Below, piece by piece: positions 25,522-41,172 of a stretch of DNA of 41,172 nt; the first letter of the stretch is position 1, and every line of letters starts with the position of its first letter. The stretch is from a virus: IMG/VR virus record IMGVR_UViG_3300045988_010662, positions 1 through 41,172 of that record, one strand, 5' to 3'. Below the pieces are notes generated by a model, which was not told the DNA's origin, made no database searches, and saw nothing but the letters and a program-made list of their open reading frames with translations. The position numbers and the translations under genes are program-made.

Positions 25522-27731
25522 TGAAGTTAATAGGCTATGATAGTAATCAACGCTTAAACACAATTAATGGCGGTGTACAAGCTAATGTAAATGAAATGGC
25601 TTATGGTGGCAACACGCAAGGCATGGATAACCTCACAAAAGCCATTGGTGATTTAGGCAACACAATGCTAACAATACAAAAGCAAAAGGAAATGACCGAT
25701 GTTGTGAATGCAACAAATGAGTATAACACCATGATGAATGATTGGCTATATAACCCTGATAATGGTGCTATGAACCGAAAGGGCGAAAATGCTTTGACTA
25801 TTCCGCTTGATTATCAAAATCAAGAGAAAAGAGCAAGGCAGCTTATATCCGAGAAGTATGGCTTTAAATTCAATGATGCGGTCAATGCCTTTAATAAAGT
25901 TGCAGATAATGATATGACCAATACAACAAACACAATCAATAAGTTTGTGCGTGGTCAATTTGAAGATAGTGCTATGAAAGCATTAGATATGAATGTGCAA
26001 AACATATCTAATAATGCGGTAGTAAATGCTAGTCCTGATGCATTCGATGATGCTATGAAACAAGTAAGCGGTAGTGTGGCAGCACAACTATCTAATCTTG
26101 GGTATGATGATAACACTATCCGATTACAAGTAAAGAAAGCGCAACAAAACATTGCTACAACCATGATTGAAAAGAAGATGGCTGATGATGATTTAGATGG
26201 TGCTAATAAGATTATCAATCAAGTTGCCATGTCAGGCTTAATCGATGAAGAAAAAATCATGGGATATCGTCAAAAGGTGCGCAATGCATCAATGGTATTA
26301 GCTACATCAGATGATAGCAAGATTGATGGTGTCATTGGTGAGTTTGACCCTAATGATCCTGACTTACTAACTAAAGTTACTGATAAGTTATTTACAAGTG
26401 GTTTTGGTAAAGTCGCTGGTGCTAGTGGTGGAAATGCAAGCGTTCAAGACCTTATGGATGCGGTTATGGGTCAAGAAAGTAGCGGTGATGCTGGAGCAGT
26501 TAATGGCAGAACTGGTGCTTATGGATTATTCCAAATATTACCTAGTAACTGGCCACAATGGAGTGAACAAGCTGGTATAGCTGGCGCAGACATGACAGAC
26601 CCTGAGGCACAAAAGAAAGTTGCAGCATATAAACTTGGTGAGTATGCAAAAGAGTATGGTGTAGAGGGTGCGTTTGCTGCTTGGTATGCTGGACCTGTAA
26701 ATGGTGCTAGATGGAGAGATGGTGCGCCTGATGCGGTTGATGGTGATGGTAACCATTATTCATGGGATGCTCCGCAAGGTGCTGGTGATGAGCCTAGTGT
26801 TCGTCAATACATACAAGAAGTTAAAGCAAAATTATTTGGTGGTGAAAAAGCTAGAGAAGAAACACCGGCAGAGGCACAAAAGCGAAAAGAAATCATTCAA
26901 CGCAACGTGGCAACACGATTACAAGTCATGGCTAAACGTAAAGCACAAATACTTGAAAATCAAAAAGTAGAGATTGAGCAACGTGTAGCAGCGGCGGTAA
27001 GAAATGGTGCAACCGATGTTGAAGTATTAAAGTTAAGGCAAGATTATGCAGAAACACATCCTGAATACCAAAGAGCAATGCAAGGTCAGTTAAACCAAGC
27101 ACAGATTTCTGTAAATAAAGCAGCGGCAAAAGCATTGCAAGCAAAAGAGGCGAACGTATTGGCGGTTAAAACCGCAATCGCAAATGGTCAATTCAAAAGC
27201 ATGGATGATTTAAATAACTTCATGGGGCAAATGGGTGTGTACTTTACACCACCACAACTTGCACAAATCAACCATGATTTTGACGAATACTCAAATGGTA
27301 CTGGAAAGTATTCTCCTGAAATGTCAGGTATGAAGAGTAGCATAGAAAACTTAGCTGGTAGAAAAATAGATGGTGTTGAATGGCAAGGTGTATCAACCGC
27401 AGTTTATCCTAAAGTACAAGAATTTAGAGAGAAACACGGCTATGATCCATCGCCTGCACAAATGGCACAATGGGGTGCTGATGCGGTAGCAGAACAAACA
27501 ATCGCATCTACAGAAACTGGTAAATATTGGGGTGTAGGTAAACGTGCTAACTTATTTGGTGGTAGAGGCGCTGCATTATCTTACACAAACGCACAACTAG
27601 CATCACAAGGTATGTATGGTTTATATAACACAACTGGTGCAGATGGTCAGCCATACTACGTTTATAAAGATGCTAGGGGCGAAGAATACACCATTACACC
27701 AGCAGAATTAGCTGAAAGGTTAGGTCAATAA
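25521..27731 (+). CDS. Internal virion protein with a lytic transglycosylase (SLT) domain (gp15 slot)
   Basis: The SLT signature LMDAVMGQESSGDAGAVNGRTGAYGLFQILPSNW ... AAWYAGP has its catalytic Glu codon at 26475-26477. The protein is 736 aa. Confidence 0.75.
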   Translation: MKLIGYDSNQRLNTINGGVQANVNEMAYGGNTQGMDNLTKAIGDLGNTMLTIQKQKEMTDVVNATNEYNTMMNDWLYNPDNGAMNRKGENALTIPLDYQNQEKRARQLISEKYGFKFNDAVNAFNKVADNDMTNTTNTINKFVRGQFEDSAMKALDMNVQNISNNAVVNASPDAFDDAMKQVSGSVAAQLSNLGYDDNTIRLQVKKAQQNIATTMIEKKMADDDLDGANKIINQVAMSGLIDEEKIMGYRQKVRNASMVLATSDDSKIDGVIGEFDPNDPDLLTKVTDKLFTSGFGKVAGASGGNASVQDLMDAVMGQESSGDAGAVNGRTGAYGLFQILPSNWPQWSEQAGIAGADMTDPEAQKKVAAYKLGEYAKEYGVEGAFAAWYAGPVNGARWRDGAPDAVDGDGNHYSWDAPQGAGDEPSVRQYIQEVKAKLFGGEKAREETPAEAQKRKEIIQRNVATRLQVMAKRKAQILENQKVEIEQRVAAAVRNGATDVEVLKLRQDYAETHPEYQRAMQGQLNQAQISVNKAAAKALQAKEANVLAVKTAIANGQFKSMDDLNNFMGQMGVYFTPPQLAQINHDFDEYSNGTGKYSPEMSGMKSSIENLAGRKIDGVEWQGVSTAVYPKVQEFREKHGYDPSPAQMAQWGADAVAEQTIASTETGKYWGVGKRANLFGGRGAALSYTNAQLASQGMYGLYNTTGADGQPYYVYKDARGEEYTITPAELAERLGQ

Positions 27732-30700
27732 TGAATAAGATTACACCTGAACAAGCGACAAAGGGTACATTTGGAATTAAATCAAATGCAAATGTAGGTT
27801 TTGTTGGTGGTGTTCAACAAGAAGTAACAGACAATTCATATAGTAAAGCTATAGGTAACGCAGTTAGTGGTATTAGTGATTGGGTAACGAAAGACCCATC
27901 AACCGCCACAGTCGATGTAAATGCAATGAACGCATTAACACAAACTGATGTTACACCGCAACAAAGCGAAAACTTTGTAAATAAAGCTGGTGAAATCTTA
28001 CAACCTGTAATGCATCGTGCAGAGCAAATCTATTTGTGGAATAAAGCAGACTGGGCGCAATCAGCATATGATAGTGGTGAGGCACTAGGTATTAGTCCTG
28101 ACATTATCATGGCTAGTGGTCAAGATGGTATTAGACGAGCAGAGGCAGCAGCAGCACAAATCAATAGAGGTAAAACTCTTAATGAAGTGTATGAGTTGTA
28201 CCCTGAATTAGTTGGTATCAATTATAAAAACTCCGCAGAGGCTATCACTACTCTTCAAAACCTACAATCTGTAAAAGATACACATGGTGTATGGGATAGC
28301 ATTCAACAAAATACATGGGCAATTAATGACCAAATCAAATTAGGCAAAGTTGGTATGGAGTTATCAACTGCTACTGATCCACAACGCATTCAAGAACTTA
28401 ATGACGAGGTAGAACGCTTACAATCTAATTTATCTAAATATCGTAAATCAGATGATAATAACGTATTAGAAAATGTAGTTGGTGCTACTGCTAGTCAAGT
28501 ATATATGATGGCTGCACACGCTATCATGGGTTCTAATCGTGCTGCAGAGGGTATGGCATTAGGTGCAGCGGCTGGTGTTGCTGCTACTGCACCATTTGGT
28601 GGTGAGGGGGCTATCCCCGGTGCATTGGTTGGTTTAAATACTGGTGTTCAAGTTGGTATGGCTGAACAAATGTATCAAATGTCTTTTGGTAACAAATACC
28701 TTGAACTCATTCAAAAACGAGATGCAAATGGAAATCAAGTATACTCTAATGAAGAGGCTAGAAAGTATGCTATGTCATACGCAGCTATTGATGCTGGTAT
28801 CGAATTTGTAGCAACTAAAGCTATAGGTAAAGGCATCAATAATGTTGCACCTAAATCAGCGTTAGCAAAAGTAATTACAAATGGAACTACAGATATTGCA
28901 GCAACCTTTGATAGAGGTATTGGAACAACTGTTGCACAGATGGCTAAAAACTCTATTAAAGCTGGTGTACCTGAACTCTTTGAAGAGGGCTTGCAAGATA
29001 TAAACGAAAAGGTACAACACAACCTAACACGCAAGGATAATGACCTAGAGGGTTATTATAGCGTAGGTGATATTGCTATAGGTTCATTAGATGCAATGAA
29101 ACAAGCATTGCCAGCGGTAATAGGTTTTGGTGCTATCGGTGGTGCAGTAGGTGGTGTACGTACTGCAAAGGCTTTCCGAGATTTCCAAAAGCTAACACCT
29201 GAACAACAACAAGCAGCAATCATCGCAGAGCAAAACCGCAATGGTGCAGTCATTATGGATAATGTTCGTAAGGATAGCACTACCAATAAAATCGCAAAAG
29301 AAAACCCTGAGTTGTACGGAAAAATCGTACAAGCGCAGGGCGATAAGGTTGGTGTATCAACTCAATATGTAGATGTAGCGGAATTAGTACAATCTGAAAA
29401 CGGACAACTTGCTATCCGTGATATGGTTGATAACGGCTTGGTAACACAAGAGGAAGTAAAAGCAGCTATCGAGGCTGATGCACCTGTTGAAATTCCTATT
29501 GGTAGCTATGCACAAGTATCTATGAACTTATCTGATGAAACAGTAGATGCATTGAAACAAACCTCATACTTTACACGTGGCGGTATGTCATTGGCTACAT
29601 TAGAACGTGCAAAACAAGAAGTAGATATTGCTAAATCTGTATTGAAAGACGATACATCAAAACGTGCGGAACGTATCAAAGATGATATTATCCGTAATGA
29701 ATTTGAGGGTGCAAGTGATATAGATCGTGAAGTACTTAACGAGGTACTATCTGACCCTACGAACATTAAACGTAATTTCAATAACTTATTGCATACGTTA
29801 AAAGAACAGTATAGAGAAAACTATGCTAGTGATTTTGACAATGCAGATAAATCTATAAATGATGCGGTAAGTACTGGTATTGAACCACAATGGTTAGTTG
29901 ATTATAAAGCTAACAACGGCGGTAAAGCACCACGTACCAATGCAGAACGTAGACGAGCAGCCTATGAGTATAGCCGAGCAACTACAACTGCTAGTTTAGA
30001 TGGTAATGCCGATGCACTAGCACAATCTGATGCACATTATGCAGATATGGAATATATGTTGATGCAAATCGAAAGTTTAGAGGCTATGAAAGATAAAGTC
30101 TTTGAATTGGCGAATAATGACATAGCATTACGGATGCAATTATCTAAAAGTGGATATGATGTATACAACGAAGTAGTTAAAGCTATTAGCGAAAGCACGA
30201 ATAGAAAACAACGTGAAACTGCAAAAGCAAATGCATTATTGATGGCACAACACGCTGATATAATGGCACAATATATGCGACAAATGGGCAAAGGCGGTTA
30301 TATCGCTATGGATTATTTCCGTGATAGCGTGCGTATCAACATGAATGCTAAATTAGGAGAAAAAGGCGGATATGCACAACCACTAAATGTTGATGTTGAC
30401 TTAAATCACAGATTACAAGTTGTTGATTTAACAAATCTTAAAACTAATCTGAAAACAGAAAAAGACATAATAGATTTATTTAAAAACACACCACCACAAG
30501 CGGTTATGATTGAGGATGGTAAGGTTATTGTTTTACCGCCTGATGATATTAATGGTATTAAACATATTCCATATGGTACGCAAAAAGGTAAAAAAATAGC
30601 AAATAAAAAAAGAAGAATTGTAGAAGATATTGCAAATATATTGCAACATAGTGTATTGATTGATAGCTCGCCTAATAATAAAATTGGTAGATCAAAATCT

Positions 30701-33700
30701 GGCATGAGTGCTAATCAACGTAAATCGCAAAATAGAAAAAATACTATTGTTAATTACCACAATTTACTATCGGCAATTCGTATTAATGGAAATTATTATG
30801 CAGTTAGATTTGTAGCAGAAGAAAAACAAGGGCATTTAACAGTATACCCAAGAACAGTTTATTTATACGATATAATTATGCAAAAAAGCAGTACTACTAG
30901 TCGCCCGACTCAGAGTGGCAATAGCCAAGCGGTCGGTCAAATGACCAGTAATACTGCTTTTGATACTATAAGTATAAAAGATATATTGAACGGGGTCAAG
31001 GACGGAAAAGGTGTTTTATATGTAGATAATAATGGAAATGGCAATTATTACACACAAACATATAATCAATCAGCATGGCATGGTTCACCACATGACTTTG
31101 ACACATTTGATTTAGGTGCTATTGGTACTGGTGAGGGTAATCAAGCACATGGTTGGGGTTTGTATTTTGCTAAGAAAAAATCAGTATCTAGGAATTATCA
31201 AAAGGAATTGTCTAAGCGATTAGGAACTACAAATCCAAAATTATTCAAAGTTGAAATTCCAGATGAAAAAACAATGCTTGATGAAGATAAATATTTCAAA
31301 GAGCAAAATAAAGATATTATTAACAAGATAGTATCAGCCGTTAATAATTTAGAAATCGATAAGCGAAAAGCTTTATTAGATCACTATAAAGAACATCCAG
31401 CTTATCCTGTTAATAAAGAGTATGAAAAAATACTAGGCAAAATACAGAGCATAAATCAAGATAGGGAATATATAACTGATGCTCTAGTAAACAATGTAAG
31501 TAAAATAAAAGAAAAAATTGCTAGAGAAGCTGCTGCTGAGTACGGATATAACTTTGACGAGTTAAAAGCAGATAATACATTTGAAATGGCTAAAAAGTTA
31601 ATAGGTGAAATTAATGAAAAGTTATCGGCACTAGAAAAAGAGAAAGAAGTTGAGGGTGCAAAAGAAAAAATAAAAGAAGATAAGATCTTGGAAAGTATCG
31701 GTGATACATTTACAAAAACACCATATACAGGAAGAGATGTTTATGTTGCATTGTCAAAAGCATTTGGCGGTGATAAAGGTGCATCTGAATTTTTAAACTC
31801 AACTGGTGTTAAGGGCATTACATATGATGGATATACAGACGGACGATGCTATGTAGTATTTGATGATAAGGCAATCAAAGTCATTGAAAAGTACAACCAA
31901 TCAATAAACGGCATGACCGAAATCATGAAAGATGGTGAACGCATTATCAGCATTTTCAAGACAGCTGATAGAAGTACATTCTTACACGAAATGGGTCATG
32001 TTTTCTTTGATGATATACAAAAATTAGCATCTATGGAAAACGCACCTGAGCAACTTGTAACAGATTGGAACAAGTTGAAAGAGTGGAGCGGTTGGGTTGA
32101 TGGTGAAAACGTAGACAATACGAAAGCACATGAAAAATTTGCACGAGGGTGGGAAAGCTACTTGCGAAGTGGTGAAGCACCAACAAGTGCATTGCAAAGA
32201 GTATTCCGTCAATTCTCCAAATGGCTGACATACATTTATCGTAGCGTTCAACGATTAGGTGGTGAAGTACCAACTGATATTAAAGATGTTATGGCACGTA
32301 TGATCGCAACCCAAGAGGATATTGAGGTATACGCAGAGCAACAACAATTAGAACAGTTTGAGAAAACTGAACTGTATAAGCAACTATCCGAACAAGACCA
32401 AGCACGGATGCAGTCTTACATAGCAGATGTTAAGGAAAAAGCAAAAGAACGTGTGATGCGAAAACTCATGAAAGAATTGGATAATCGACCAATTAAAGAA
32501 TGGGAAGAAGAAAAGGATGCTATTCAAATTGAAATAGAAAAACGATTGATTGAGCAATATCCTATATACAAAGAGCATCAACGATATAACGTGTTTGGTG
32601 AGGGTGCATTGAAAGATACACGGTACAACTCTATTGAAGAGTTGGAGAAAGTGGAAGTAGAGCAAACTGGTACTACATTTAACGATGCTATCAATCAAGA
32701 AATGGACAATGCGAAAGCAGAGTTTATGAGTGATAACAATGTAGGCAAAACCAACGAGCAAATCGCAGAAGAAATCTTGCTTAGTACCCAAGGTCAAATG
32801 AGATTAACCGAAGAAGAAAGTAAGATTATTCAAAAGTCTACTAATCGTGAACTAGCGAAGAACTGGGAGTTGTTAGAGCGTATTCGTAAACTAGACCCTA
32901 ACGCAGAAACTATTGATACAGAGTTAAGTGAAATCGAAAAAGAGGTTAAACCTACTAAGTACGATGAGTTAAAATCTGATAAGAAAAAAGTAGATGCTGC
33001 TTTGAGTGATACTACTAAGCAATTAGAAAAAGCAGAAGAACGTATCAAACGCTTACAGTATATGCTGAATAATCGCATCAATAATGTTCGTTCTATTCGA
33101 GGCGCTGGACTTGGTACAATTTCTGACTACATGAACCGAGCAAGAAAAGAATTAGGTGAGTTGCCTATATCTAATGCGATACAGTTTAAAACGTATCAGA
33201 ATAAAGCGGTAACTGCTGGCAAGAAAGCAGATAGAGCATTGGCAATCGGTGATGTTGATAAAGCACTTGGCTTTAAGCGTGAACAGATGCTACAACAAGC
33301 AAGGGCGAGAGTAGCGTTTGAAAACTTTGAAAAGTCCAAGAAGTTGCGATTGAAATTAAAACAACAATTACAACGCATGACTAGACCGAAGAACCCTATT
33401 GCTATTGAACCTAATATGCGTTATTTCTACGCACACATGGCATACCAAATGGGTTTAACTAAGTACGATGGACTAGCACCTACAGATGGTTTTGATATGA
33501 ACACAGTATTATCTGCACTAGATGTGGATGCACTTATTCTTAACCAACAATCAATGGTTCAATTAGAACCTTGGATAGCTGAAATGTTCTATTCTAAAAC
33601 ACCTAAATCATTTAAATCTATCACAATGAACGAGTTAGAAACTTTGGAAGAGTTAATGACTGGGATGTACAAGAATGGTAGAAATGAGTATGAGGGTACA

Positions 33701-35902
33701 ACCATCTTAAACGATGAGGGTAAAAGCATATCGTTTGAAAATGCAGTACAAGAAATCATTGGTGAGGCTACAGAAACATTTGGTGGTGCAACTGGTGATG
33801 TGTTTAACAAACTCAATAACCAAACTAAAACAGATGCAGTAAGTGGTAAACTATATGGTTTCCACTTAGCGTTGATGAAAGTTGAAACATTCCTAAGACG
33901 AATGGGTGGCGGTAAAAATGGGTTTGCGGTTAAATATATCTATGACCCAATCAGTAGAGCAACGCAAGCGTTCAATGAACGTAAGGAAACATCAATGCGT
34001 AGATTGGCCAAGGATGTAGGAATATATTCCAAACGTGAACTATTTGATATGCGTAATGACCACTTATACACAGTTGGTGAGTTACACGGCTTAACCAAAG
34101 AGCAACTTATCATGATTGCCCTTAACTGGGGTACAGAAAGCAATAGACAACGTGTAATGGAAACTACAAAGGCGAATGAAGTCGATATTGAACGTGCATT
34201 CCAAGAGCATATGACAGATAAAGACTGGGAATTTGTTATTCGTACATGGGATCATATCAATTCATTCTTTGAAGAGCGTAGTAGAGTACAAGAGGAACTT
34301 TACGGAAACCCATTAAAGAAAGTAGAGGGTTTATCTTTCACTATCGGTGGTAGAAATATTGAGGGGCAATATTTCCCAATCGTGTATAACCCTAAAGTAA
34401 ATGCATCTGTTAGCGACAATCAAGTTGAAGATATTGCTAAAACTATGGTAAGTAGTAATGCAGTATGGGGAACTGGTATGAGCGCCACTAAAAGCCGGTT
34501 AGATGTAGTAAAAGATAAATCTCTATTGCTTGATTTTGATGTAATTCCTAATGCTATCACAGAGGCTATTAACCACGTTACAATGCGTAAAGCGGTAACT
34601 GATGTTAATAAGCTAATCTCTAATCGTGAACTACAAAACTATATTGTTGATAAGTTTGGTGCTGATACCTACCAATTCTTGCGTACATGGGTTCGTGATA
34701 ACTGGCAAGATGAGGCAGCGAAAACAAATGATATTGATAGACTTATTCTTACATTGAAGAAAAATACATCAACGGCGGTAATGGCTGGGCGTGTATCTGT
34801 AGCATTGCAAAATGCGTTGAACTTACCAGTTGCGTTCTATCGTATCGGTGTAGGTAAGACCATTAGAGCCATCAATCATGCTGGTATTGGTTTTTACGGA
34901 CACGGCACAACCACTTATAACAACACTAGAGATTTTGTATTAGGTCAATCAATCTTCATGCGTGAGCGCATCCAGACATTAGATAAAGACTTGAAACAAG
35001 GGTTATCTATTGCTGGTAAAGGCTTACGTTTAGGTGATACAAATATTGGTGGTTATAAGGTTGAACAACTTGCTGATATTCGTGATGATATAAATCAAAT
35101 GGGGTTCAGGTTACTTACGGAAACAGACTTTGCATTATCCATCCCAGTATGGAAATTTGCATATGATCAAAAGCAAGCTGAACTCTTTGGTAAAGAGGGT
35201 GTAAGTGCTGAATGGGTAGAGCAACAATCTGTTGAGGCTGGTGACAGAGCAGTACGTGATATATTTGGTAGCGGTGATACAAAGGATGCTGCTGCTATTC
35301 AACGTTCACGTTCTACATTCACTCAATTATTCGTTCCGTTCTATTCCTACGCTAATACACTTTATAACATTATCACAGAGGGTAACTATGCACGTAAGGA
35401 TAACGGCGATTATGCAAGGTTCGTTAAAATGCTATGGTGGACATTGATTTCACAGGCTATCGGTATGATGGCTTACAAAGCCTTAACGAATGGCGATGAT
35501 GACAAACCAGAAGATTTAGCTAAGTCATTTATCGAAGAGTTAGTTTCACAAGGTACTATGGGTGTACCAATCATCCGTGATATGTCAAATATGGCTATGA
35601 AATACATTCTAGGTGAAAAGGTATTCAATAAAGGTAATAGCGTTATGGCTTTGAGTATCGTTGAGAAATTCTACGATGTTGGTAATGCTATTATCAACGA
35701 TAAAAAAGATGGTGTTGATTTAGGTAGAAGTCTTAGTCAGTTGGCGAACAGGGCAACTGGTTTTAGTGATACTGTAACAGATGGACTATGGACATTGGCT
35801 AAATATGCGTTCACCGATACCGATGCAGCCTTAGAAGATGTAATCATGGCTATTGTATTTGACCGTAGATTAAAAACTAAAAAAGACAAAAAGAAACATT
35901 GA
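27731..35902 (+). CDS. Giant (2,723 aa) ejected core / polyvalent protein with ART-like and zincin-like modules (gp16 slot)
   Basis: One uninterrupted ORF. It has Gly/Ala-rich hydrophobic segments near the N-terminus, WHGS at 31076-31087, GLYFAKKKSVSRNY from about 31157, and HEMGH at 31985-31999. Confidence 0.8.
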   Translation: MNKITPEQATKGTFGIKSNANVGFVGGVQQEVTDNSYSKAIGNAVSGISDWVTKDPSTATVDVNAMNALTQTDVTPQQSENFVNKAGEILQPVMHRAEQIYLWNKADWAQSAYDSGEALGISPDIIMASGQDGIRRAEAAAAQINRGKTLNEVYELYPELVGINYKNSAEAITTLQNLQSVKDTHGVWDSIQQNTWAINDQIKLGKVGMELSTATDPQRIQELNDEVERLQSNLSKYRKSDDNNVLENVVGATASQVYMMAAHAIMGSNRAAEGMALGAAAGVAATAPFGGEGAIPGALVGLNTGVQVGMAEQMYQMSFGNKYLELIQKRDANGNQVYSNEEARKYAMSYAAIDAGIEFVATKAIGKGINNVAPKSALAKVITNGTTDIAATFDRGIGTTVAQMAKNSIKAGVPELFEEGLQDINEKVQHNLTRKDNDLEGYYSVGDIAIGSLDAMKQALPAVIGFGAIGGAVGGVRTAKAFRDFQKLTPEQQQAAIIAEQNRNGAVIMDNVRKDSTTNKIAKENPELYGKIVQAQGDKVGVSTQYVDVAELVQSENGQLAIRDMVDNGLVTQEEVKAAIEADAPVEIPIGSYAQVSMNLSDETVDALKQTSYFTRGGMSLATLERAKQEVDIAKSVLKDDTSKRAERIKDDIIRNEFEGASDIDREVLNEVLSDPTNIKRNFNNLLHTLKEQYRENYASDFDNADKSINDAVSTGIEPQWLVDYKANNGGKAPRTNAERRRAAYEYSRATTTASLDGNADALAQSDAHYADMEYMLMQIESLEAMKDKVFELANNDIALRMQLSKSGYDVYNEVVKAISESTNRKQRETAKANALLMAQHADIMAQYMRQMGKGGYIAMDYFRDSVRINMNAKLGEKGGYAQPLNVDVDLNHRLQVVDLTNLKTNLKTEKDIIDLFKNTPPQAVMIEDGKVIVLPPDDINGIKHIPYGTQKGKKIANKKRRIVEDIANILQHSVLIDSSPNNKIGRSKSGMSANQRKSQNRKNTIVNYHNLLSAIRINGNYYAVRFVAEEKQGHLTVYPRTVYLYDIIMQKSSTTSRPTQSGNSQAVGQMTSNTAFDTISIKDILNGVKDGKGVLYVDNNGNGNYYTQTYNQSAWHGSPHDFDTFDLGAIGTGEGNQAHGWGLYFAKKKSVSRNYQKELSKRLGTTNPKLFKVEIPDEKTMLDEDKYFKEQNKDIINKIVSAVNNLEIDKRKALLDHYKEHPAYPVNKEYEKILGKIQSINQDREYITDALVNNVSKIKEKIAREAAAEYGYNFDELKADNTFEMAKKLIGEINEKLSALEKEKEVEGAKEKIKEDKILESIGDTFTKTPYTGRDVYVALSKAFGGDKGASEFLNSTGVKGITYDGYTDGRCYVVFDDKAIKVIEKYNQSINGMTEIMKDGERIISIFKTADRSTFLHEMGHVFFDDIQKLASMENAPEQLVTDWNKLKEWSGWVDGENVDNTKAHEKFARGWESYLRSGEAPTSALQRVFRQFSKWLTYIYRSVQRLGGEVPTDIKDVMARMIATQEDIEVYAEQQQLEQFEKTELYKQLSEQDQARMQSYIADVKEKAKERVMRKLMKELDNRPIKEWEEEKDAIQIEIEKRLIEQYPIYKEHQRYNVFGEGALKDTRYNSIEELEKVEVEQTGTTFNDAINQEMDNAKAEFMSDNNVGKTNEQIAEEILLSTQGQMRLTEEESKIIQKSTNRELAKNWELLERIRKLDPNAETIDTELSEIEKEVKPTKYDELKSDKKKVDAALSDTTKQLEKAEERIKRLQYMLNNRINNVRSIRGAGLGTISDYMNRARKELGELPISNAIQFKTYQNKAVTAGKKADRALAIGDVDKALGFKREQMLQQARARVAFENFEKSKKLRLKLKQQLQRMTRPKNPIAIEPNMRYFYAHMAYQMGLTKYDGLAPTDGFDMNTVLSALDVDALILNQQSMVQLEPWIAEMFYSKTPKSFKSITMNELETLEELMTGMYKNGRNEYEGTTILNDEGKSISFENAVQEIIGEATETFGGATGDVFNKLNNQTKTDAVSGKLYGFHLALMKVETFLRRMGGGKNGFAVKYIYDPISRATQAFNERKETSMRRLAKDVGIYSKRELFDMRNDHLYTVGELHGLTKEQLIMIALNWGTESNRQRVMETTKANEVDIERAFQEHMTDKDWEFVIRTWDHINSFFEERSRVQEELYGNPLKKVEGLSFTIGGRNIEGQYFPIVYNPKVNASVSDNQVEDIAKTMVSSNAVWGTGMSATKSRLDVVKDKSLLLDFDVIPNAITEAINHVTMRKAVTDVNKLISNRELQNYIVDKFGADTYQFLRTWVRDNWQDEAAKTNDIDRLILTLKKNTSTAVMAGRVSVALQNALNLPVAFYRIGVGKTIRAINHAGIGFYGHGTTTYNNTRDFVLGQSIFMRERIQTLDKDLKQGLSIAGKGLRLGDTNIGGYKVEQLADIRDDINQMGFRLLTETDFALSIPVWKFAYDQKQAELFGKEGVSAEWVEQQSVEAGDRAVRDIFGSGDTKDAAAIQRSRSTFTQLFVPFYSYANTLYNIITEGNYARKDNGDYARFVKMLWWTLISQAIGMMAYKALTNGDDDKPEDLAKSFIEELVSQGTMGVPIIRDMSNMAMKYILGEKVFNKGNSVMALSIVEKFYDVGNAIINDKKDGVDLGRSLSQLANRATGFSDTVTDGLWTLAKYAFTDTDAALEDVIMAIVFDRRLKTKKDKKKH

Positions 35903-35908
35903 TAAATA

Positions 35909-35940
35909 AGGACTATCCATTATGGGTAGTCCTATTTATA
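35909..35940 (+). terminator. Hairpin / probable terminator after the giant gene
   Basis: aggactatcca-tta-tgggtagtcct (11 bp, one G-U pair), followed by atttatatat. Confidence 0.5.
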
Positions 35941-35962
35941 TATATTGAAAGGGGATGTTAAA

Positions 35963-38900
35963 TTGACACCAGAAGTACTTAGACCATCTGTAACGTATCA
36001 ATGCGATGGGGTAAATAAGCGTTTTATTTTCCCTTACGATTTCGTGCAAATCGAGGATATTCGCTTAATCGTGGTTGACCTTGACGGAACAGAGGAAGTG
36101 CAAACACACAACATCGCATATGATGAAATGGATAAGGCTATTATTTATCCGAATGACGGCGATGCATTGGCCAATGGTAAGAAAGTTATCCTTGAACGTG
36201 TTACTCCGATTTCACAAGATACAGATTTACCTGATGAGTACCCATTCGAGAATATCGAACATTCAACAGATAAAATCATTATGATTTTGCAAGAAATGAA
36301 AGCGGAACTTAACCGCAGTTTAAAGGTAAGACCACATAGCGATGAGAACCCTGACGAGTTAGTGAAATTGATTGTTGAGCGTTCTGTAAAAGCTGCAGAA
36401 GATGCAGTAAAAGCGGTAGCAACGATTGAGGCTAAAACCGATAAGGTGGCTACTGATTTAGATACTATCAGTCAGTTAAACGCAGAAATTAAAGCATTGG
36501 CAGAACGTGCGGAAACTGCTGCTGAGAAAGCTGAGCAAGTATCGTTCCCCAACGCAAAAGGTTTGGTTACAAAAGCTGATGCGGATGCAAAGTATCAAAC
36601 TAAAGATAGTTTAACAGGTATCGTATCAGTAAAAGACTTTGGAGCGGTTGGTGATGGCGTAGCTGACGATACCGCAGCGTTCAAGAAAGCTAATAACAAC
36701 TTAGAAAACAAAATCCTATTTGTGCCTAGTGGTATTTATAAGTTAAATGAACACATCACATTTAACACAGTAGGTTCTGTAATGGATATGGGTACATATT
36801 CCAATATTAAGCCGTTCTATCCTACTGAAACTCCAATGCTAAAAGGTGCTAATAATATTGCGTTTGTAAAAAATATCCAGTATAGCGAAGAGGTCAACCA
36901 ATGCCAAGGGTTTACCTATAATGATAAAAAGAATGTATTCGTGTTAGCTTGTATCAATGGCTATGGCACAACTCAAATCTTATATGAATTGAATGCTGAT
37001 ACATTGGAAATCGTAGGCACATACAAATATAATGACCCAGACAAAATGGGGCATTGCAACACTATGTGCTACAACAAAAACACCAATAAGATTTATTTGG
37101 CCAATGGATTAAAAAATGGTAACAACCTAACAGTACTTGATGCGGATACAATGCAATATGAACGCACTATTACATTAAATGAACGTGTATTTAATATTGC
37201 CTATGACCATATTACACGCACTTATGCAAGCATCGTACCTATTAGCGGTAATAAACGTGTTCGTCAAATTAACTTATACAACGATGATTTCGTCAAAATG
37301 AAATCGTATCAAGTTGACTACCAATACGATGATTTCAATAACAATGGTGCGTTCATGCTAAATGGTTGCATCATGAGTGCTACGTTGGGTAGCCTTGTAG
37401 AATGCACTCCATTTGGTACAGTTAAACAAATCATCGAGATTAACCCTAAGACTGAAATTGAAGATATTGCATATTACAATGGCAAATTCTATTTTGCGGT
37501 TTTGACTATGCAATCTAATAAGCGACATAAAGTAGATATTTATGTTGGTGATCCAAGCCGTGAATATGAAAACTCTATCAACACGCAAAAATTAACTAGC
37601 CTTGATTACCTAAAATTAACTGGTGGCAATGTAACTGGTGCAATTAAAATGGCTAACAATACATTGATTGAGGGTTTCAAGCCTGACGGTCATGGTGTTG
37701 GCATGGCTAAAGTATCTGCAAATGGCAACGTAGAACTTGGCGATGCATCTGTTAATACATTCATTAAGGGTAAAGAGTTTAAATATTATGATGGTACAGA
37801 TAGCTATACAGTACTAACCACAAAACACTATGGAACTGCAATCTACAACAAAAACCAAATTGATGATGCGTTTGTTAAGAAAGGTGATGTAGATGCTATC
37901 TCTAATGGCGCTAATAAACAAATGACTATCACACATCCACTATTTGCAGATAGTGCTATAGAAAGTGGTGATTGTACCTTTGTTGGTGTAGATGGCAAAT
38001 GGTTTATTATCGATAGTTTACAGAAAACAGATGCTAACTTAAATTCCATTCTTAAATGCATGACAGATAATAACATTGAGAAGTTTGAGTTTGGCTTTGT
38101 ATCACATTATCATAACGACCATATTGGGAATTTTGCAGAACTCATCAAGCGTGGCAAAATCGCTAAAATGTATTTACCTAACCCTGATAAGACCGAAGTA
38201 ATTGGTAGCTATGGTATGACCGCACAAGTACTCAATACGATTGCTAATGGTATTAAGGCGGAATGTACTGCTAAGAGCGTTCCAATAGAAACTATCGAGC
38301 CTAAGACAATCGATTTCAATGGCGCATCCATCACGTTCTATAACTGTAGTGATGAAGATTATGCGTATTATAAGTCAATCAACAATGATGATTACAATAA
38401 CTTATCCGCTTGTTTAGAAATAAACTATCTAAACCGCACTGCAATATTTGAGGGTGATAGTAATTATCACGCTATGGAACGAAATGCAATGCGTAACCCA
38501 GCTAATGTTGATTATTTAAAATCTAATCATCATGGCATTTCGCAAGTACCTATTTCATACCGCAAGTTGAACCCTAGAGATGTAATGATTACTGCTACAC
38601 GAACTTTTGGTAGAGAGAATTTGTTTGTATCAAACTATCAAGCTACATTCTTACAAATGGGGTGTAATTTGTATTTGTTAGGCGATCAGATTGTGCCACC
38701 TAAAATTACTTACTATGGAAACGGACATATCGAATACAATAGGGAACTGTTAAGAGATGGTACTGCTGGTCAAGCAACATCATTAGAAATCTATGTAGAT
38801 AGAAATTACACAGGCTCACTAAAAACTGGTGATGCACATTCTCCATTTACACATTTAGCGGATGCAGTACGTTTTATCAACAACACTAAGCACGCTATTG

Positions 38901-39703
38901 TAACAGTTAAAATTAGTGCTGGTGAATACACTAGACCTGATGATATTGGATATACAGGTAATAACCATAAAGAACTACGATTGCTGAATATCCATAATAA
39001 AGTAACCTTCACAACAAATGGTAGTGGTATAGCTAATTTGCCGCCTATGTTTATTGGGTACTGTAAAAATATCTACTTTAAAAATGTATCGTTCTTGGGT
39101 ACAAGTGGTAGTTATAACCGCAAAATTCAAATTGTAGATACAACGTGTATGTTTGAAAATTGTAAGTTAGATAGCGTTAAACAAGCCACAGACAAAGATA
39201 GTAATAATGTAGTTATTCAATCGCAAGATGATAGTATGTTGAAATTGGTTAATGTCAACTTTACTGGTGGTTGGGCTGCATTACAAGTAGTAGGCGGTAT
39301 GGTTTTATTAACTGGTACAGAAAATCATTGTAACACTAGCCATGCATATGTATTACAAAGTGGTGTGGTTATGGTCGAAACACCATTCACCGAAAAAAAC
39401 AATGTAAATAAATTTGATGATAGTGCTGCAAAAGAGGCGGGTCAAATCTATTTTAAAGCGGTTAAGAATACCGATAGTATGCCTAATAACTTACTGGCAG
39501 GTACAATCGTTCCAGCTAAGAATAGAGAGTTCCCTCAAATTACACAGTTTGTTCAGATGAAATCAACTAAATTAGCAGACTTTGTGTACTCATTGGCTAA
39601 TATTACTGAAACAACTACACCAGTATTTACTGGTCAAATTGGGTACAACGGCGAAGAAGTGTATTTTGGTATAAATGGTAAATGGGTAAAAATTAGCAAT
39701 TAG
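35963..39703 (+). CDS. Multidomain tail fibre / tailspike with an embedded MBL-fold domain
   Basis: Four modules are visible. (1) N-terminus TYQCDGVNKRFIFPYDF (T7-type fibre adaptor pattern). (2) VSVKDFGAVGDGVADDTAAF (pectate-lyase_3-type motif). (3) HYHNDH at 38105-38122, plus FEGDSNYH and LKSNHHGIS. (4) C-terminal beta-helix-like repeats. TTG 35963 follows GAAAGGGGA; the track start is 35945. Confidence 0.8.
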   Translation: MTPEVLRPSVTYQCDGVNKRFIFPYDFVQIEDIRLIVVDLDGTEEVQTHNIAYDEMDKAIIYPNDGDALANGKKVILERVTPISQDTDLPDEYPFENIEHSTDKIIMILQEMKAELNRSLKVRPHSDENPDELVKLIVERSVKAAEDAVKAVATIEAKTDKVATDLDTISQLNAEIKALAERAETAAEKAEQVSFPNAKGLVTKADADAKYQTKDSLTGIVSVKDFGAVGDGVADDTAAFKKANNNLENKILFVPSGIYKLNEHITFNTVGSVMDMGTYSNIKPFYPTETPMLKGANNIAFVKNIQYSEEVNQCQGFTYNDKKNVFVLACINGYGTTQILYELNADTLEIVGTYKYNDPDKMGHCNTMCYNKNTNKIYLANGLKNGNNLTVLDADTMQYERTITLNERVFNIAYDHITRTYASIVPISGNKRVRQINLYNDDFVKMKSYQVDYQYDDFNNNGAFMLNGCIMSATLGSLVECTPFGTVKQIIEINPKTEIEDIAYYNGKFYFAVLTMQSNKRHKVDIYVGDPSREYENSINTQKLTSLDYLKLTGGNVTGAIKMANNTLIEGFKPDGHGVGMAKVSANGNVELGDASVNTFIKGKEFKYYDGTDSYTVLTTKHYGTAIYNKNQIDDAFVKKGDVDAISNGANKQMTITHPLFADSAIESGDCTFVGVDGKWFIIDSLQKTDANLNSILKCMTDNNIEKFEFGFVSHYHNDHIGNFAELIKRGKIAKMYLPNPDKTEVIGSYGMTAQVLNTIANGIKAECTAKSVPIETIEPKTIDFNGASITFYNCSDEDYAYYKSINNDDYNNLSACLEINYLNRTAIFEGDSNYHAMERNAMRNPANVDYLKSNHHGISQVPISYRKLNPRDVMITATRTFGRENLFVSNYQATFLQMGCNLYLLGDQIVPPKITYYGNGHIEYNRELLRDGTAGQATSLEIYVDRNYTGSLKTGDAHSPFTHLADAVRFINNTKHAIVTVKISAGEYTRPDDIGYTGNNHKELRLLNIHNKVTFTTNGSGIANLPPMFIGYCKNIYFKNVSFLGTSGSYNRKIQIVDTTCMFENCKLDSVKQATDKDSNNVVIQSQDDSMLKLVNVNFTGGWAALQVVGGMVLLTGTENHCNTSHAYVLQSGVVMVETPFTEKNNVNKFDDSAAKEAGQIYFKAVKNTDSMPNNLLAGTIVPAKNREFPQITQFVQMKSTKLADFVYSLANITETTTPVFTGQIGYNGEEVYFGINGKWVKISN

Positions 39704-39713
39704 GGGAGAATAA

Positions 39714-40259: not shown

Positions 40260-40453
40260 AAATTAATTATGAGGACACTATAACCTTAGTGGCACTAGCA
40301 ACCGCACTAATCATGACTATTTATCTTGAACAGAAAGATTTGGCAAGTGTAATAGTTGGTGTGTTAGGTGGTTATATCGGTGCTACTGGTGGTGTTAAGC
40401 GTTCCCAATATATGAAAGAACAAGAAGTAAAAAAGGAAGATACCGGGTGCTAA
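40256..40453 (+). CDS. Small membrane protein (second holin / antiholin candidate)
   Basis: 65 aa with two hydrophobic helices; ATGA overlap with the holin gene. Confidence 0.5.
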   Translation: MKINYEDTITLVALATALIMTIYLEQKDLASVIVGVLGGYIGATGGVKRSQYMKEQEVKKEDTGC

Positions 40454-40471
40454 TATTAGCACCCTCTTTTA
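40445..40471 (+). terminator. Palindromic hairpin / terminator between the holin genes and the endolysin
   Basis: A perfect 20-nt palindrome gggtgctaatattagcaccc (40445-40464) followed by tctttta. It overlaps the stop codon at 40451-40453. Confidence 0.55.
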
Positions 40472-40482
40472 GTAAAGGAGAT

Positions 40483-40896
40483 ATGAATATGAAAGTTGGT
40501 AAATATTTTGATGAAAGCGAATTTGCGTGTAAATGTGGCAATCACGGATTTCATGATGATGGCACACCTTGCCTAGACCATGTGATTGATAAACGATTGG
40601 TGGATTTGCTAGATGCAATTCGTGAACGCTTGGGTGTTCCTGTATATATTTTAAGTGGTTATCGTTGCCCTACCCATAACGCAGAAGTAGGTGGTGTATC
40701 CAACTCTCAACACGTTTTGGGTACGGCTGCAGATATTACATACGATGGAATTGATGTGGATTATTTAGCATCCGTGGCGGAAGAGTGTGCAAACGAAGTA
40801 TTGGGTGAGGGTGTTGGCATTGGTAGTTATTACTACCAAGATTTCGTGCATGTAGATGTACGTGGTTACGATGCACGATGGAACGATTTAGACTAA
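40483..40896 (+). CDS. Endolysin, peptidase M15A (zinc D,D- or L,D-peptidase)
   Basis: Zinc-ligand pattern SGYRCPTHN, SQHVLGTAADI and FVHVDVR. AAAGGAG RBS. Start is ATG 40483 or 40489. Confidence 0.85.
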   Translation: MNMKVGKYFDESEFACKCGNHGFHDDGTPCLDHVIDKRLVDLLDAIRERLGVPVYILSGYRCPTHNAEVGGVSNSQHVLGTAADITYDGIDVDYLASVAEECANEVLGEGVGIGSYYYQDFVHVDVRGYDARWNDLD

Positions 40897-40920
40897 ATTT
40901 AATTAAATGAGGTGTAAGCC

Positions 40921-41172
40921 ATGTTAATTAGTAAGTTGGTACAAATTATCAAAGAACACTACAAACTAGTCGTAGCGATTGTCCTATGCGTTTTTGTCGC
41001 TATTGTAGGTGTAGTGATATATCATTACAAACATAAGCAATTAGAAAAGCCTGTTGTAATTACACAACAACAAGCTAAATCACCTGTAGAGTTATCAAAA
41101 GCAATTCATGTTACAGAACAACAAGCACAAGAAGTTATTTCCATTAAGGAAAGAACTCAACCAGTAGCGACT
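40921..41172 (+). CDS. 5' part of the wrap-around ORF: signal-anchored protein downstream of the endolysin
   Basis: GAGGTG RBS 7 nt upstream of the start. N-terminal TM VVAIVLCVFVAIVGVVIY. The ORF has no stop before the window end and continues in frame at position 2. Confidence 0.7.
   Translation, partial: MLISKLVQIIKEHYKLVVAIVLCVFVAIVGVVIYHYKHKQLEKPVVITQQQAKSPVELSKAIHVTEQQAQEVISIKERTQPVAT
41118..41172. repeat. Terminal direct repeat, copy 2
   Basis: Exact 55-nt match to bases 1-55, so the window closes on itself. Confidence 0.95.

Follow-up and report, generated by a model that had tools for sequence, protein, structure and literature searches.

An MBL-fold domain in an exchangeable tail-fibre cassette of a temperate Veillonella podovirus: a candidate virion-borne phosphodiesterase

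The receptor-destroying enzymes known from phage tails comprise glycosidases, lyases, deacetylases, GDPD phosphodiesterases and the beta-helix of phi29 gp12. The tail fibre described here is encoded in a viral stretch of 41,172 nucleotides (IMG/VR record IMGVR_UViG_3300045988_010662, positions 1 to 41,172), referred to below as the window, which is a temperate T7-like podovirus of Veillonella. The fibre contains a domain of the metallo-beta-lactamase (MBL) fold, joined to a right-handed beta-helix within a distal cassette that is exchanged between phages. We lean, with modest confidence, towards a role for this cassette as a virion-borne metallo-phosphodiesterase that would cleave or trim a phosphodiester-containing surface glycan under the guidance of the beta-helix.

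The described systems closest to this domain act on phosphodiesters. Pce is the teichoic-acid phosphorylcholine esterase of Streptococcus pneumoniae and is exo-acting. The C-terminal domain of ComEC is a Mn-dependent general phosphodiesterase and nuclease, and its modelled site is strongly positive; its motif II reads HxDxDH, with Asp replacing the second His (Silale et al.). Among phage proteins, the pre-neck appendage gp12 of phi29 digests wall teichoic acid, and a survey of enterococcal tail lysins listed GDPD as the sole phosphodiesterase-type domain, alongside pectinesterase and peptidoglycan-targeting domains.

The MBL domain and its active site

The domain passes the Pfam cut-off for Lactamase_B (PF00753), with 25.8 bits in the whole fibre against a gathering score of 22.7, and with 27.4 bits when presented as a segment of 612 amino acids (aa). 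The best single-sequence match in a phmmer search of the PDB is Pce/CbpE (E 2.8e-7, over 164 residues spanning motifs II-V), and a profile built from 70 relatives matches the ComEC MBL domain 9ic4 at 1.2e-32 and CbpE at 1.9e-30. An AlphaFold2 (AF2) model of aa 641-1252 has a mean pLDDT (predicted local distance difference test score) of 86.7; within its MBL part the score is above 93 through aa ~890 and 83-95 at the C-terminal end. Foldseek comparison of this model gave 127 PDB matches at E<=1e-3, led by MBL-fold enzymes with their alpha-beta/beta-alpha sandwich, and including Pce (1wra; E 2.7e-12, TM-score 0.70) and the ComEC MBL domain (9ic4; TM-score 0.81, root-mean-square deviation 3.3 A). 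By sequence, by profile and by fold, the domain is nearest to phosphodiesterases throughout: first to Pce and ComEC, and after them to RNase J, CPSF and tRNase Z-type enzymes. The domain is acidic, with an isoelectric point (pI) of 5.6, and 92% of its relatives have a pI <6.

A sequence-only reading of the window had placed a ComEC-like MBL domain in this fibre, between a propeller-like and a beta-helix-like region, and had proposed a Lactamase_B scan and a structure prediction as checks. Both returned an MBL domain at that place, and the predicted fold is that of the superfamily. The ComEC label is right as to homology but gives half of the picture, Pce/CbpE being equally close and motif II being of the Pce type. 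The span first assigned (38015-38590) covers the catalytic core; the whole folded domain is longer at both ends (Table 1), and the motif I residue D690 falls just outside that span. Judged by homology and predicted fold, the domain is a member of the MBL superfamily and of its ComEC/Pce-type subgroup; it is not ComEC, not Pce and not a class B beta-lactamase. ComEC membership was rejected on the score of 14.4 bits for TIGR00361, whose cut-off is 190.

The five MBL motifs (D; HxHxDH; H or N; D; H) occur in order and are conserved in the relatives. The HxHxDH that had been read at codons 38105-38122 lies exactly there (H721-H726) and is followed, as described, by the GD and HHG motifs (AIFEGDSNYH...KSNHHGIS, aa 833-866); the motif III region aligns with 'NNnS' of ComEC 9ic4. 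Conservation was counted in a MAFFT alignment of the 149 best domains from an exhaustive HMMER scan, which found 952 representative proteins, of phage or possibly other origin, at E<=1e-3; a word-indexed homologue search with the MBL segment found one fragment only. Within motif II, H721, D725 and H726 are each present in 149 of the 149 domains, and position 723 holds His in 133 of them and Asp in the other 16. The ligands are conserved even across relatives of 20-30% identity.

Closer relatives allow a finer comparison. The cassette is found at 15 IMG/VR loci, at 72-92% identity, and on two ENA contigs, which together with the window make a set of 18 close genes (17 relatives). Every ligand residue is kept in 18 of 18, while 86 of the 245 MBL positions (35%) vary. 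In pairwise comparisons with the window, the ratio of nonsynonymous to synonymous substitution rates (dN/dS) is 0.08-0.13 for the 17 related genes, with dS up to 0.4-0.8. The stretch that holds motifs III-V (aa 801-870) is 84-91% identical in all 17, and in the short-form fibres described below it remains at that level even where other MBL segments fall to 59-78%. The ligand conservation that the sequence-only reading had made a condition of its proposal is thus seen in distant and close homologues alike. These comparisons indicate that the active site is maintained under purifying selection, and the domain is predicted to be a binuclear-metal hydrolase with a complete ligand set.

An exchangeable distal cassette

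DNA homology between the window and two Veillonella prophage fibres (L006, L007) stops at 37893 and resumes at 39698-39705; the short-form fibres L004 and L016 are homologous to the window from 37910 onwards. These breakpoints argue that aa ~651-1252 make up one exchangeable distal cassette, consisting of the MBL domain, the beta-helix and a tip, and that the window fibre is a chimera carrying both propeller and cassette. Long and short forms both exist: in the short forms (P0002, L004, L016) the anchor is fused directly to the cassette, which in P0002 is 69% identical to the window fibre over aa 656-1252. The L006 and L007 prophage fibres, of 839 aa, are shared up to '...TTKHYGTAIY.K..DD.FVKK' and then end in a tip of ~130 aa. 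The cassette stands in for this short tip, and for an extra open reading frame (ORF), at the distal end of fibres that are otherwise homologous; such modular exchange of the distal part between related phages is a trait of tail fibres. The extra ORF, of ~160 aa, lies directly 3' of the short-tip fibre (L006 12496-12981; L007 3662-4141), has no Pfam match and is absent from the window. Its product, which may accompany the short tip, could be a chaperone of that tip or a second subunit for receptor binding.

The cassette is conserved end to end behind other anchors, namely T7-tail, tail-collar, BppU_N and Mtd_N domains. P0006, with a T7-tail N-domain, has the cassette at 30% identity over aa 647-1243, and its gene (L023 1495-3891) precedes holin and amidase genes on a podovirus-like contig. 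P0008, with a tail-collar N-domain, has it at 26% identity over aa 662-1233 and is encoded by the last gene of a myovirus baseplate operon (L026 8001-10748). P0011 (L028 6658-8805), which represents an abundant group of ~715-aa proteins, is encoded after the connector in a phi29-like (picovirus-like) genome, which is the slot of the gp12 appendage. Relatives of the MBL domain fall into hundreds of 50%-identity clusters; in the cases examined they form part of tail modules, in podo-, myo- and phi29-like phages. At least 250 residues follow motif V in 97 of the 135 relatives with recognisable motifs, and some relatives pair the MBL domain with pectinesterase-like beta-helices. The combination of MBL domain and beta-helix is an architecture distinct from those of ComEC and Pce.

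The module has already been catalogued, in that phrog_7043 ('tail protein') matches 66 of 70 relatives and phrog_14556 (unknown function) matches 68 of 70. An unrelated passenger enzyme, which had been offered as one explanation of the domain, does not fit an MBL domain and beta-helix that form one conserved, exchangeable fibre cassette under purifying selection. The cassette also occurs, at 35% identity, in a 1344-aa MBL protein (P0005; L024 8001-12035). The 240-kb contig that encodes it could be a jumbo phage or a chromosome, and the neighbouring ORFs there, of 1794, 1454 and 534 aa, are very large and lack annotation.

The remainder of the fibre, the phage and its host

Table 1. Features of the tail fibre gene and its product, in window coordinates
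Feature	Position	Strand	Basis
Tail fibre gene, 1252 aa from a TTG start	35945..39703	+	last structural gene
Putative virion anchor at the N-terminus (aa 1-135), then coiled-coil stalk (aa ~136-220)	35945..36604	+	phrog_1640; 52% identical to the P0002 N-terminus
Pectate-lyase-type opening motif VSVKDFGAVGDG..., not a full beta-helix	36620..36766	+	PF12708, aa 226-274
Beta-propeller, aa ~305-535	36857..37549	+	AF2 model and Foldseek
Shaft/linker, aa 541-655	37565..37909	+	ends at recombination breakpoint '...TTKHYGTAIYNKNQIDDAFVKK'
Exchangeable cassette (MBL, beta-helix, tip), aa ~651-1252	37894..39700	+	DNA homology breakpoints
MBL-fold domain, aa ~656-935, ComEC/Pce subgroup	37910..38749	+	Pfam, PDB sequence and profile matches, AF2 and Foldseek
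Motif I Asp, D690	38012..38014	+	Asp in 147/149 relatives; invariant in 18 genes
Motif II HYHNDH (H721, H723, D725, H726), within FGFVSHYHNDHIGNF	38105..38122	+	all four invariant in 18 genes
Motif III region NNLS (N818, S821)	38396..38407	+	N818 in 148/149, S821 in 145/149
Motif IV bridging Asp, D838 (FEGD)	38456..38458	+	149/149 relatives
Motif V HH (H862, H863; KSNHHG)	38528..38533	+	H862 in 148/149, H863 in 149/149
Right-handed beta-helix, aa ~936-1175	38750..39469	+	profile matches, DSSP strands, BFVD, cap motif
C-terminal tip, aa 1176-1252, small, beta-rich, after a low-confidence loop	39470..39700	+	AF2 model

The downstream beta-helix was revealed by the family profile only, and a single-sequence PDB search with the C-terminal 322 aa returned nothing meaningful. 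The profile matches polygalacturonase 1nhc (2e-7) and the pectinesterases 1xg2 (6e-5) and 1gq8, which bears out the beta-helix-like region described from the sequence. The DSSP strand pattern of the model, BFVD matches to beta-helix and tail proteins, and an N-cap motif, GDAHSPFTHLADA (G..PF..L..A), at aa 962 agree with this assignment. The beta-helix is the most variable part among the relatives, its middle being 45-90% identical.

The propeller-like region upstream of the MBL domain was likewise confirmed. Its AF2 model has a mean pLDDT of 79, and 84-96 over most of the propeller, and Foldseek matched it to 3mbr (TM-score 0.69), 3qqz (TM-score 0.66) and YncE. Homologues of the propeller standing alone (P0169-P0205), of ~254 aa and of ~374-401 aa, are 35-47% identical to it and carry no Pfam annotation; they form clusters of up to 1523 member sequences and lie on contigs >200 kb, presumably bacterial chromosomes. 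Closer to the N-terminus, the pectate-lyase_3-type motif of the earlier reading is present, since VSVKDFGAVGDGVADDTAAF (aa 227-246, nt 36623-36682) lies in a PF12708 match (E 1.4e-7), but it does not open a beta-helix domain: the match takes in only the first 53 of 213 profile positions, PDB matches span only the first ~50 residues, and a low-confidence linker follows in the model. The N-terminus itself matches phrog_1640 'tail protein' (E 9e-6), and a Phage_T7_tail match at aa 12-89 is weak (16 bits against a gathering score of 25.2). This T7-tail domain, PF03906, is clear in P0006 and in the partial proteins P0159, P0160 and P0165, which are 63-68% identical to the propeller region.

Besides an integrase and a DnaD-like loader, the window codes for terminase, portal, capsid, tubular tail proteins A and B and internal virion proteins. 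The order of genes runs from terminase, portal and capsid through tubular tail A/B and the internal virion proteins to the fibre, a holin-like ORF and an endolysin (M15). The fibre gene lies 3' of genes for a 740-aa SLT protein and a 2723-aa polyvalent internal virion protein and 5' of the holin-like ORF, that is, at the distal end of the structural module and adjoining the lysis genes, as enzymatic tail-fibre genes do. The host is Veillonella. In a scan of one genome per species, prophages in two Veillonella assemblies carried the first 652 residues of the fibre at 70-84% identity. Compared by megablast with 50,697 phage records, neither the fibre nor 25 kb of the window gave a match; the phage lacks a close deposited relative.

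The fibre had been given as 1,246 aa; the difference from the present 1252 aa is due solely to the start codon chosen. At 35923 there is an ATG that has a good ribosome-binding site (AAGGA), but the frame encodes MGSPIYIY and then stops (window 35923-35947). At the fibre start of relatives, MGSPIYIQLKGDVKL reads in frame, unlike in the window, where the main ORF opens only at TTG 35945 because of a 1-nt deletion in a TATATAT run. This deletion reflects an error of assembly or else a genuine truncation of the N-terminus or reinitiation; a different 1-nt indel occurs near the fibre start of L011. The same fibre gene is found on the 91% identical sister contig L001 (BNJU01004258.1, GCA_015471965.1; 7711-11457), where it is called as five ORFs, one of them a 218-aa 'Lactamase_B' fragment. 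The alignment has 13 gaps over 7.4 kb, and the broken fibre looks like either indel-type sequencing error or pseudogenisation.

Two neighbouring genes also vary between phages. The 2723-aa polyvalent protein (27731-35902) has weak LPD3 and ART-PolyVal (ADP-ribosyltransferase) matches and a HEMGH zincin-like motif, and differs in its central third from a Veillonella prophage orthologue whose flanks are ~85% identical in DNA. The endolysin ORF (40447-40896) encodes a Peptidase_M15_3 enzyme (E 4e-21) and is a swapped module too, DNA homology dropping out exactly over 40417-41008; sister contigs and Veillonella prophages have a 219-aa T6SS_VgrG3-like_C lysozyme in its place.

Possible function and relation to known systems

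The proposal of a phosphodiesterase stems from the two closest characterised relatives, Pce and the C-terminal domain of ComEC: both hydrolyse phosphodiesters, and by homology we infer the same for the fibre domain. A part in receptor binding is favoured by the exchange of the cassette for a short distal tip, and a place on the tail by its recurrence behind several kinds of tail anchor and in the slot of gp12, the teichoic-acid-digesting appendage of phi29. The variable, specificity-bearing beta-helix would dock on a phosphodiester-containing glycan of the host surface, and the MBL site would hydrolyse the phosphodiester via a metal-bridged hydroxide. The chain would thereby be depolymerised, or a phospho-substituent stripped, and the phage could then pass the glycan layer and reach the outer membrane. 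Of the candidate substrates, the O-antigen of lipopolysaccharide (LPS) would be the best. Veillonella has a diderm envelope and an LPS that shows an O-antigen ladder, and in V. parvula DSM 2008 the O-antigen repeat units are reported to be joined by mannitol-6-phosphate-3-glucosamine phosphodiesters. Teichoic acid had been suggested earlier as a target; since the host is a diderm with LPS and no wall teichoic acid, that polymer is not the target, and the phosphodiester-linked O-antigen is the better candidate.

Several considerations weigh against this proposal. What is said of the cassette's function derives from homology, and homology does not fix the substrate, because the MBL superfamily also holds lactonases, thioesterases, sulfatases and nucleases. 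Phosphodiester-linked O-antigen is described from one strain only, and another strain makes lipooligosaccharide without it. The beta-helix itself could be the depolymerase, with the MBL domain in an accessory or other role, and the beta-helices of relatives do match pectinesterase and polygalacturonase profiles. Finally, the propeller may be the primary receptor binder.

Other activities must be weighed against cleavage of the glycan by the MBL site. The domain might act in the manner of Pce, as an esterase that removes phosphocholine, phosphoethanolamine or glycerol-phosphate from LPS or capsule, with the beta-helix as the real depolymerase or binder; removal of the decoration would unmask or destroy a receptor. 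Pce, the closest characterised relative that is not a nuclease, is an exo-acting phosphorylcholine esterase, motif II of the fibre is of its HxHxDH type, and the beta-helix resembles polysaccharide-active folds. However, a Pfam scan found no match to choline-binding repeats (CW_binding_1) in the fibre, the C-terminal part of which is a beta-helix, phosphocholine-like decorations on Veillonella were not found in the evidence gathered, and the sole structural information found points to a backbone phosphodiester, so we regard trimming of this kind as unlikely. A virion-borne nuclease of the ComEC type, degrading extracellular DNA in the plaque or gut biofilm matrix to reach Veillonella, seems slightly less likely still. 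It would agree with the ComEC MBL domain being the best match by profile and TM-score and having demonstrated nuclease activity, and with the ComEC-type HxDxDH in 16 of the 149 relatives. The fibre has HxHxDH, though, and the acidity of the domain and of most of its relatives, set against the strongly positive modelled site of ComEC, is weak evidence against a DNA substrate. In addition, the exchange of the cassette for a receptor-binding tip, and its link to a variable beta-helix, fit strain-specific recognition and not a generic matrix nuclease, and distant relatives of the cassette occupy the gp12 slot of phi29-like phages.

The MBL site could instead perform some other chemistry on the surface glycan, as a carboxyl-esterase or deacylase, a lactonase or a sulfatase, and leave phosphodiesters untouched. 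Such chemistry would suit the diversity of the superfamily, the existence of deacetylating tailspikes and the pairing of some MBL relatives with pectinesterase-like beta-helices; it is nevertheless improbable given that the nearest relatives by all three measures are phosphodiesterases. Receptor-binding proteins of phages have sometimes taken up enzyme folds that serve them as binding modules without activity, and the domain might by analogy be catalytically silent, with the MBL fold kept as a lectin-like or structural module. Against this stand metal ligands that are invariant though 35% of the domain positions vary and dS reaches 0.4-0.8, and that persist across relatives of 20-30% identity, and a silent domain is accordingly very improbable. 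Effectively excluded, finally, are a resistance beta-lactamase, an Apyc1-like anti-defence cyclic-nucleotide phosphodiesterase and a misassembled passenger gene. A preprint has flagged MBL genes in Veillonella prophage-like regions, with caution, as putative resistance genes, and there are weak Apyc1 matches around motif II. The class B beta-lactamase was rejected at 20.3 bits for NCBIfam bla_class_B_core (cut-off 100), the Apyc1-like enzyme on a similarity limited to ~25 residues, and the passenger gene is contradicted by a domain that lies in frame inside a 1252-aa structural protein on at least 15 independent viral contigs.

If the preferred reading of the cassette as a glycan-directed metallo-phosphodiesterase is true, it would supply a concrete enzyme-substrate pair for an understudied commensal genus, the cassette acting on the phosphodiester-linked V. 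parvula O-antigen, and could yield reagents to type or degrade teichoic-acid-like polymers. A wider and rather doubtful extension is that the cassette marks a widespread receptor-destroying class, common to phages of monoderms and of Veillonella, in which metallo-phosphodiesterase tailspikes depolymerise phosphodiester-linked glycopolymers. Members in phages of monoderm Firmicutes would fill the phi29 gp12 slot and have teichoic acids as targets, and those in phages of the diderm Veillonella would target the teichoic-acid-like mannitol-phosphate O-antigen. Such a class, if true, would unite the two envelope types in their surface chemistry and their phage arsenals.

In the literature searched, MBL enzymes came up together with tail fibres, receptor-binding proteins or depolymerases only in papers that mention NDM-type resistance; neither a characterised tail MBL enzyme nor a functional description of the fibre MBL module was found. 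The MBL-fold fibre cassette is therefore a variant of enzymatic tail fibres for which no characterised case was found in the literature searched. GenBank phages gave only weak tblastn matches, to the Clostridium perfringens picoviruses phiQ, CPD7 and susfortuna and to unannotated faecal contigs. Some of the C. perfringens picovirus matches are annotated 'late competence protein', a carry-over from ComEC similarity, and the papers on these phages contain no discussion of the MBL gene. Both this label and the flagging of such prophage genes as possible carbapenemase-type resistance genes are corrected by the present assignment. The phiQ_19 and CPD7 picovirus proteins, like phrog_7043 and phrog_14556, contain the same MBL module, at ~25-30% identity over the core.

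Of the bacterial relatives, Pce/CbpE (1wra, 2bib) belongs to the same MBL subgroup and gives the best Foldseek E-value as well as the best single-sequence match. It shares with the fibre domain the HxHxDH of motif II and aligned GD and HH motifs, acts extracellularly, as is proposed for the fibre domain, on a phosphodiester in a glycopolymer of the cell surface, and likewise fuses a catalytic MBL domain to a separate polymer-binding module. Its identity to the fibre domain is ~15-25%; it is a secreted bacterial protein targeted by choline-binding repeats where the fibre has a beta-helix as partner, and the phage host, Veillonella, is without teichoic acid. The MBL domain of ComEC/Rec2 (9ic4, 30bt, 9vc6) leads by profile and TM-score, shares the order of motifs, including the N-x-x-S of the motif III region and the K..HHG of motif V, and is, as predicted for the fibre domain, an extracytoplasmic phosphodiesterase. 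ComEC is, however, a polytopic membrane DNA channel with a DNA substrate, Mn2+ and an Asp in motif II in contrast to the HYHNDH of the fibre, and a Pfam scan found neither Competence nor DUF4131 domains in the fibre, whose upstream part consists of coiled coil, propeller and shaft.

The phage systems resemble the fibre more in setting than in fold. The GDPD domains in tail proteins of Gram-positive phages are tail-associated phosphodiesterases for which an attack on teichoic acid has been proposed, but their fold is a TIM barrel, unrelated to that of the fibre domain, and a Pfam scan of the fibre gave no GDPD match; the MBL domain would be a second, convergent solution. Phi29 gp12 is, like the distal fibre, a virion-borne right-handed beta-helix, and its activity degrades a phosphodiester-linked wall polymer. 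In gp12 the beta-helix is itself catalytic and has no MBL domain, whereas the fibre has a separate MBL domain before its beta-helix, and it is the gp12 slot that distant relatives of the cassette occupy in phi29-like genomes.

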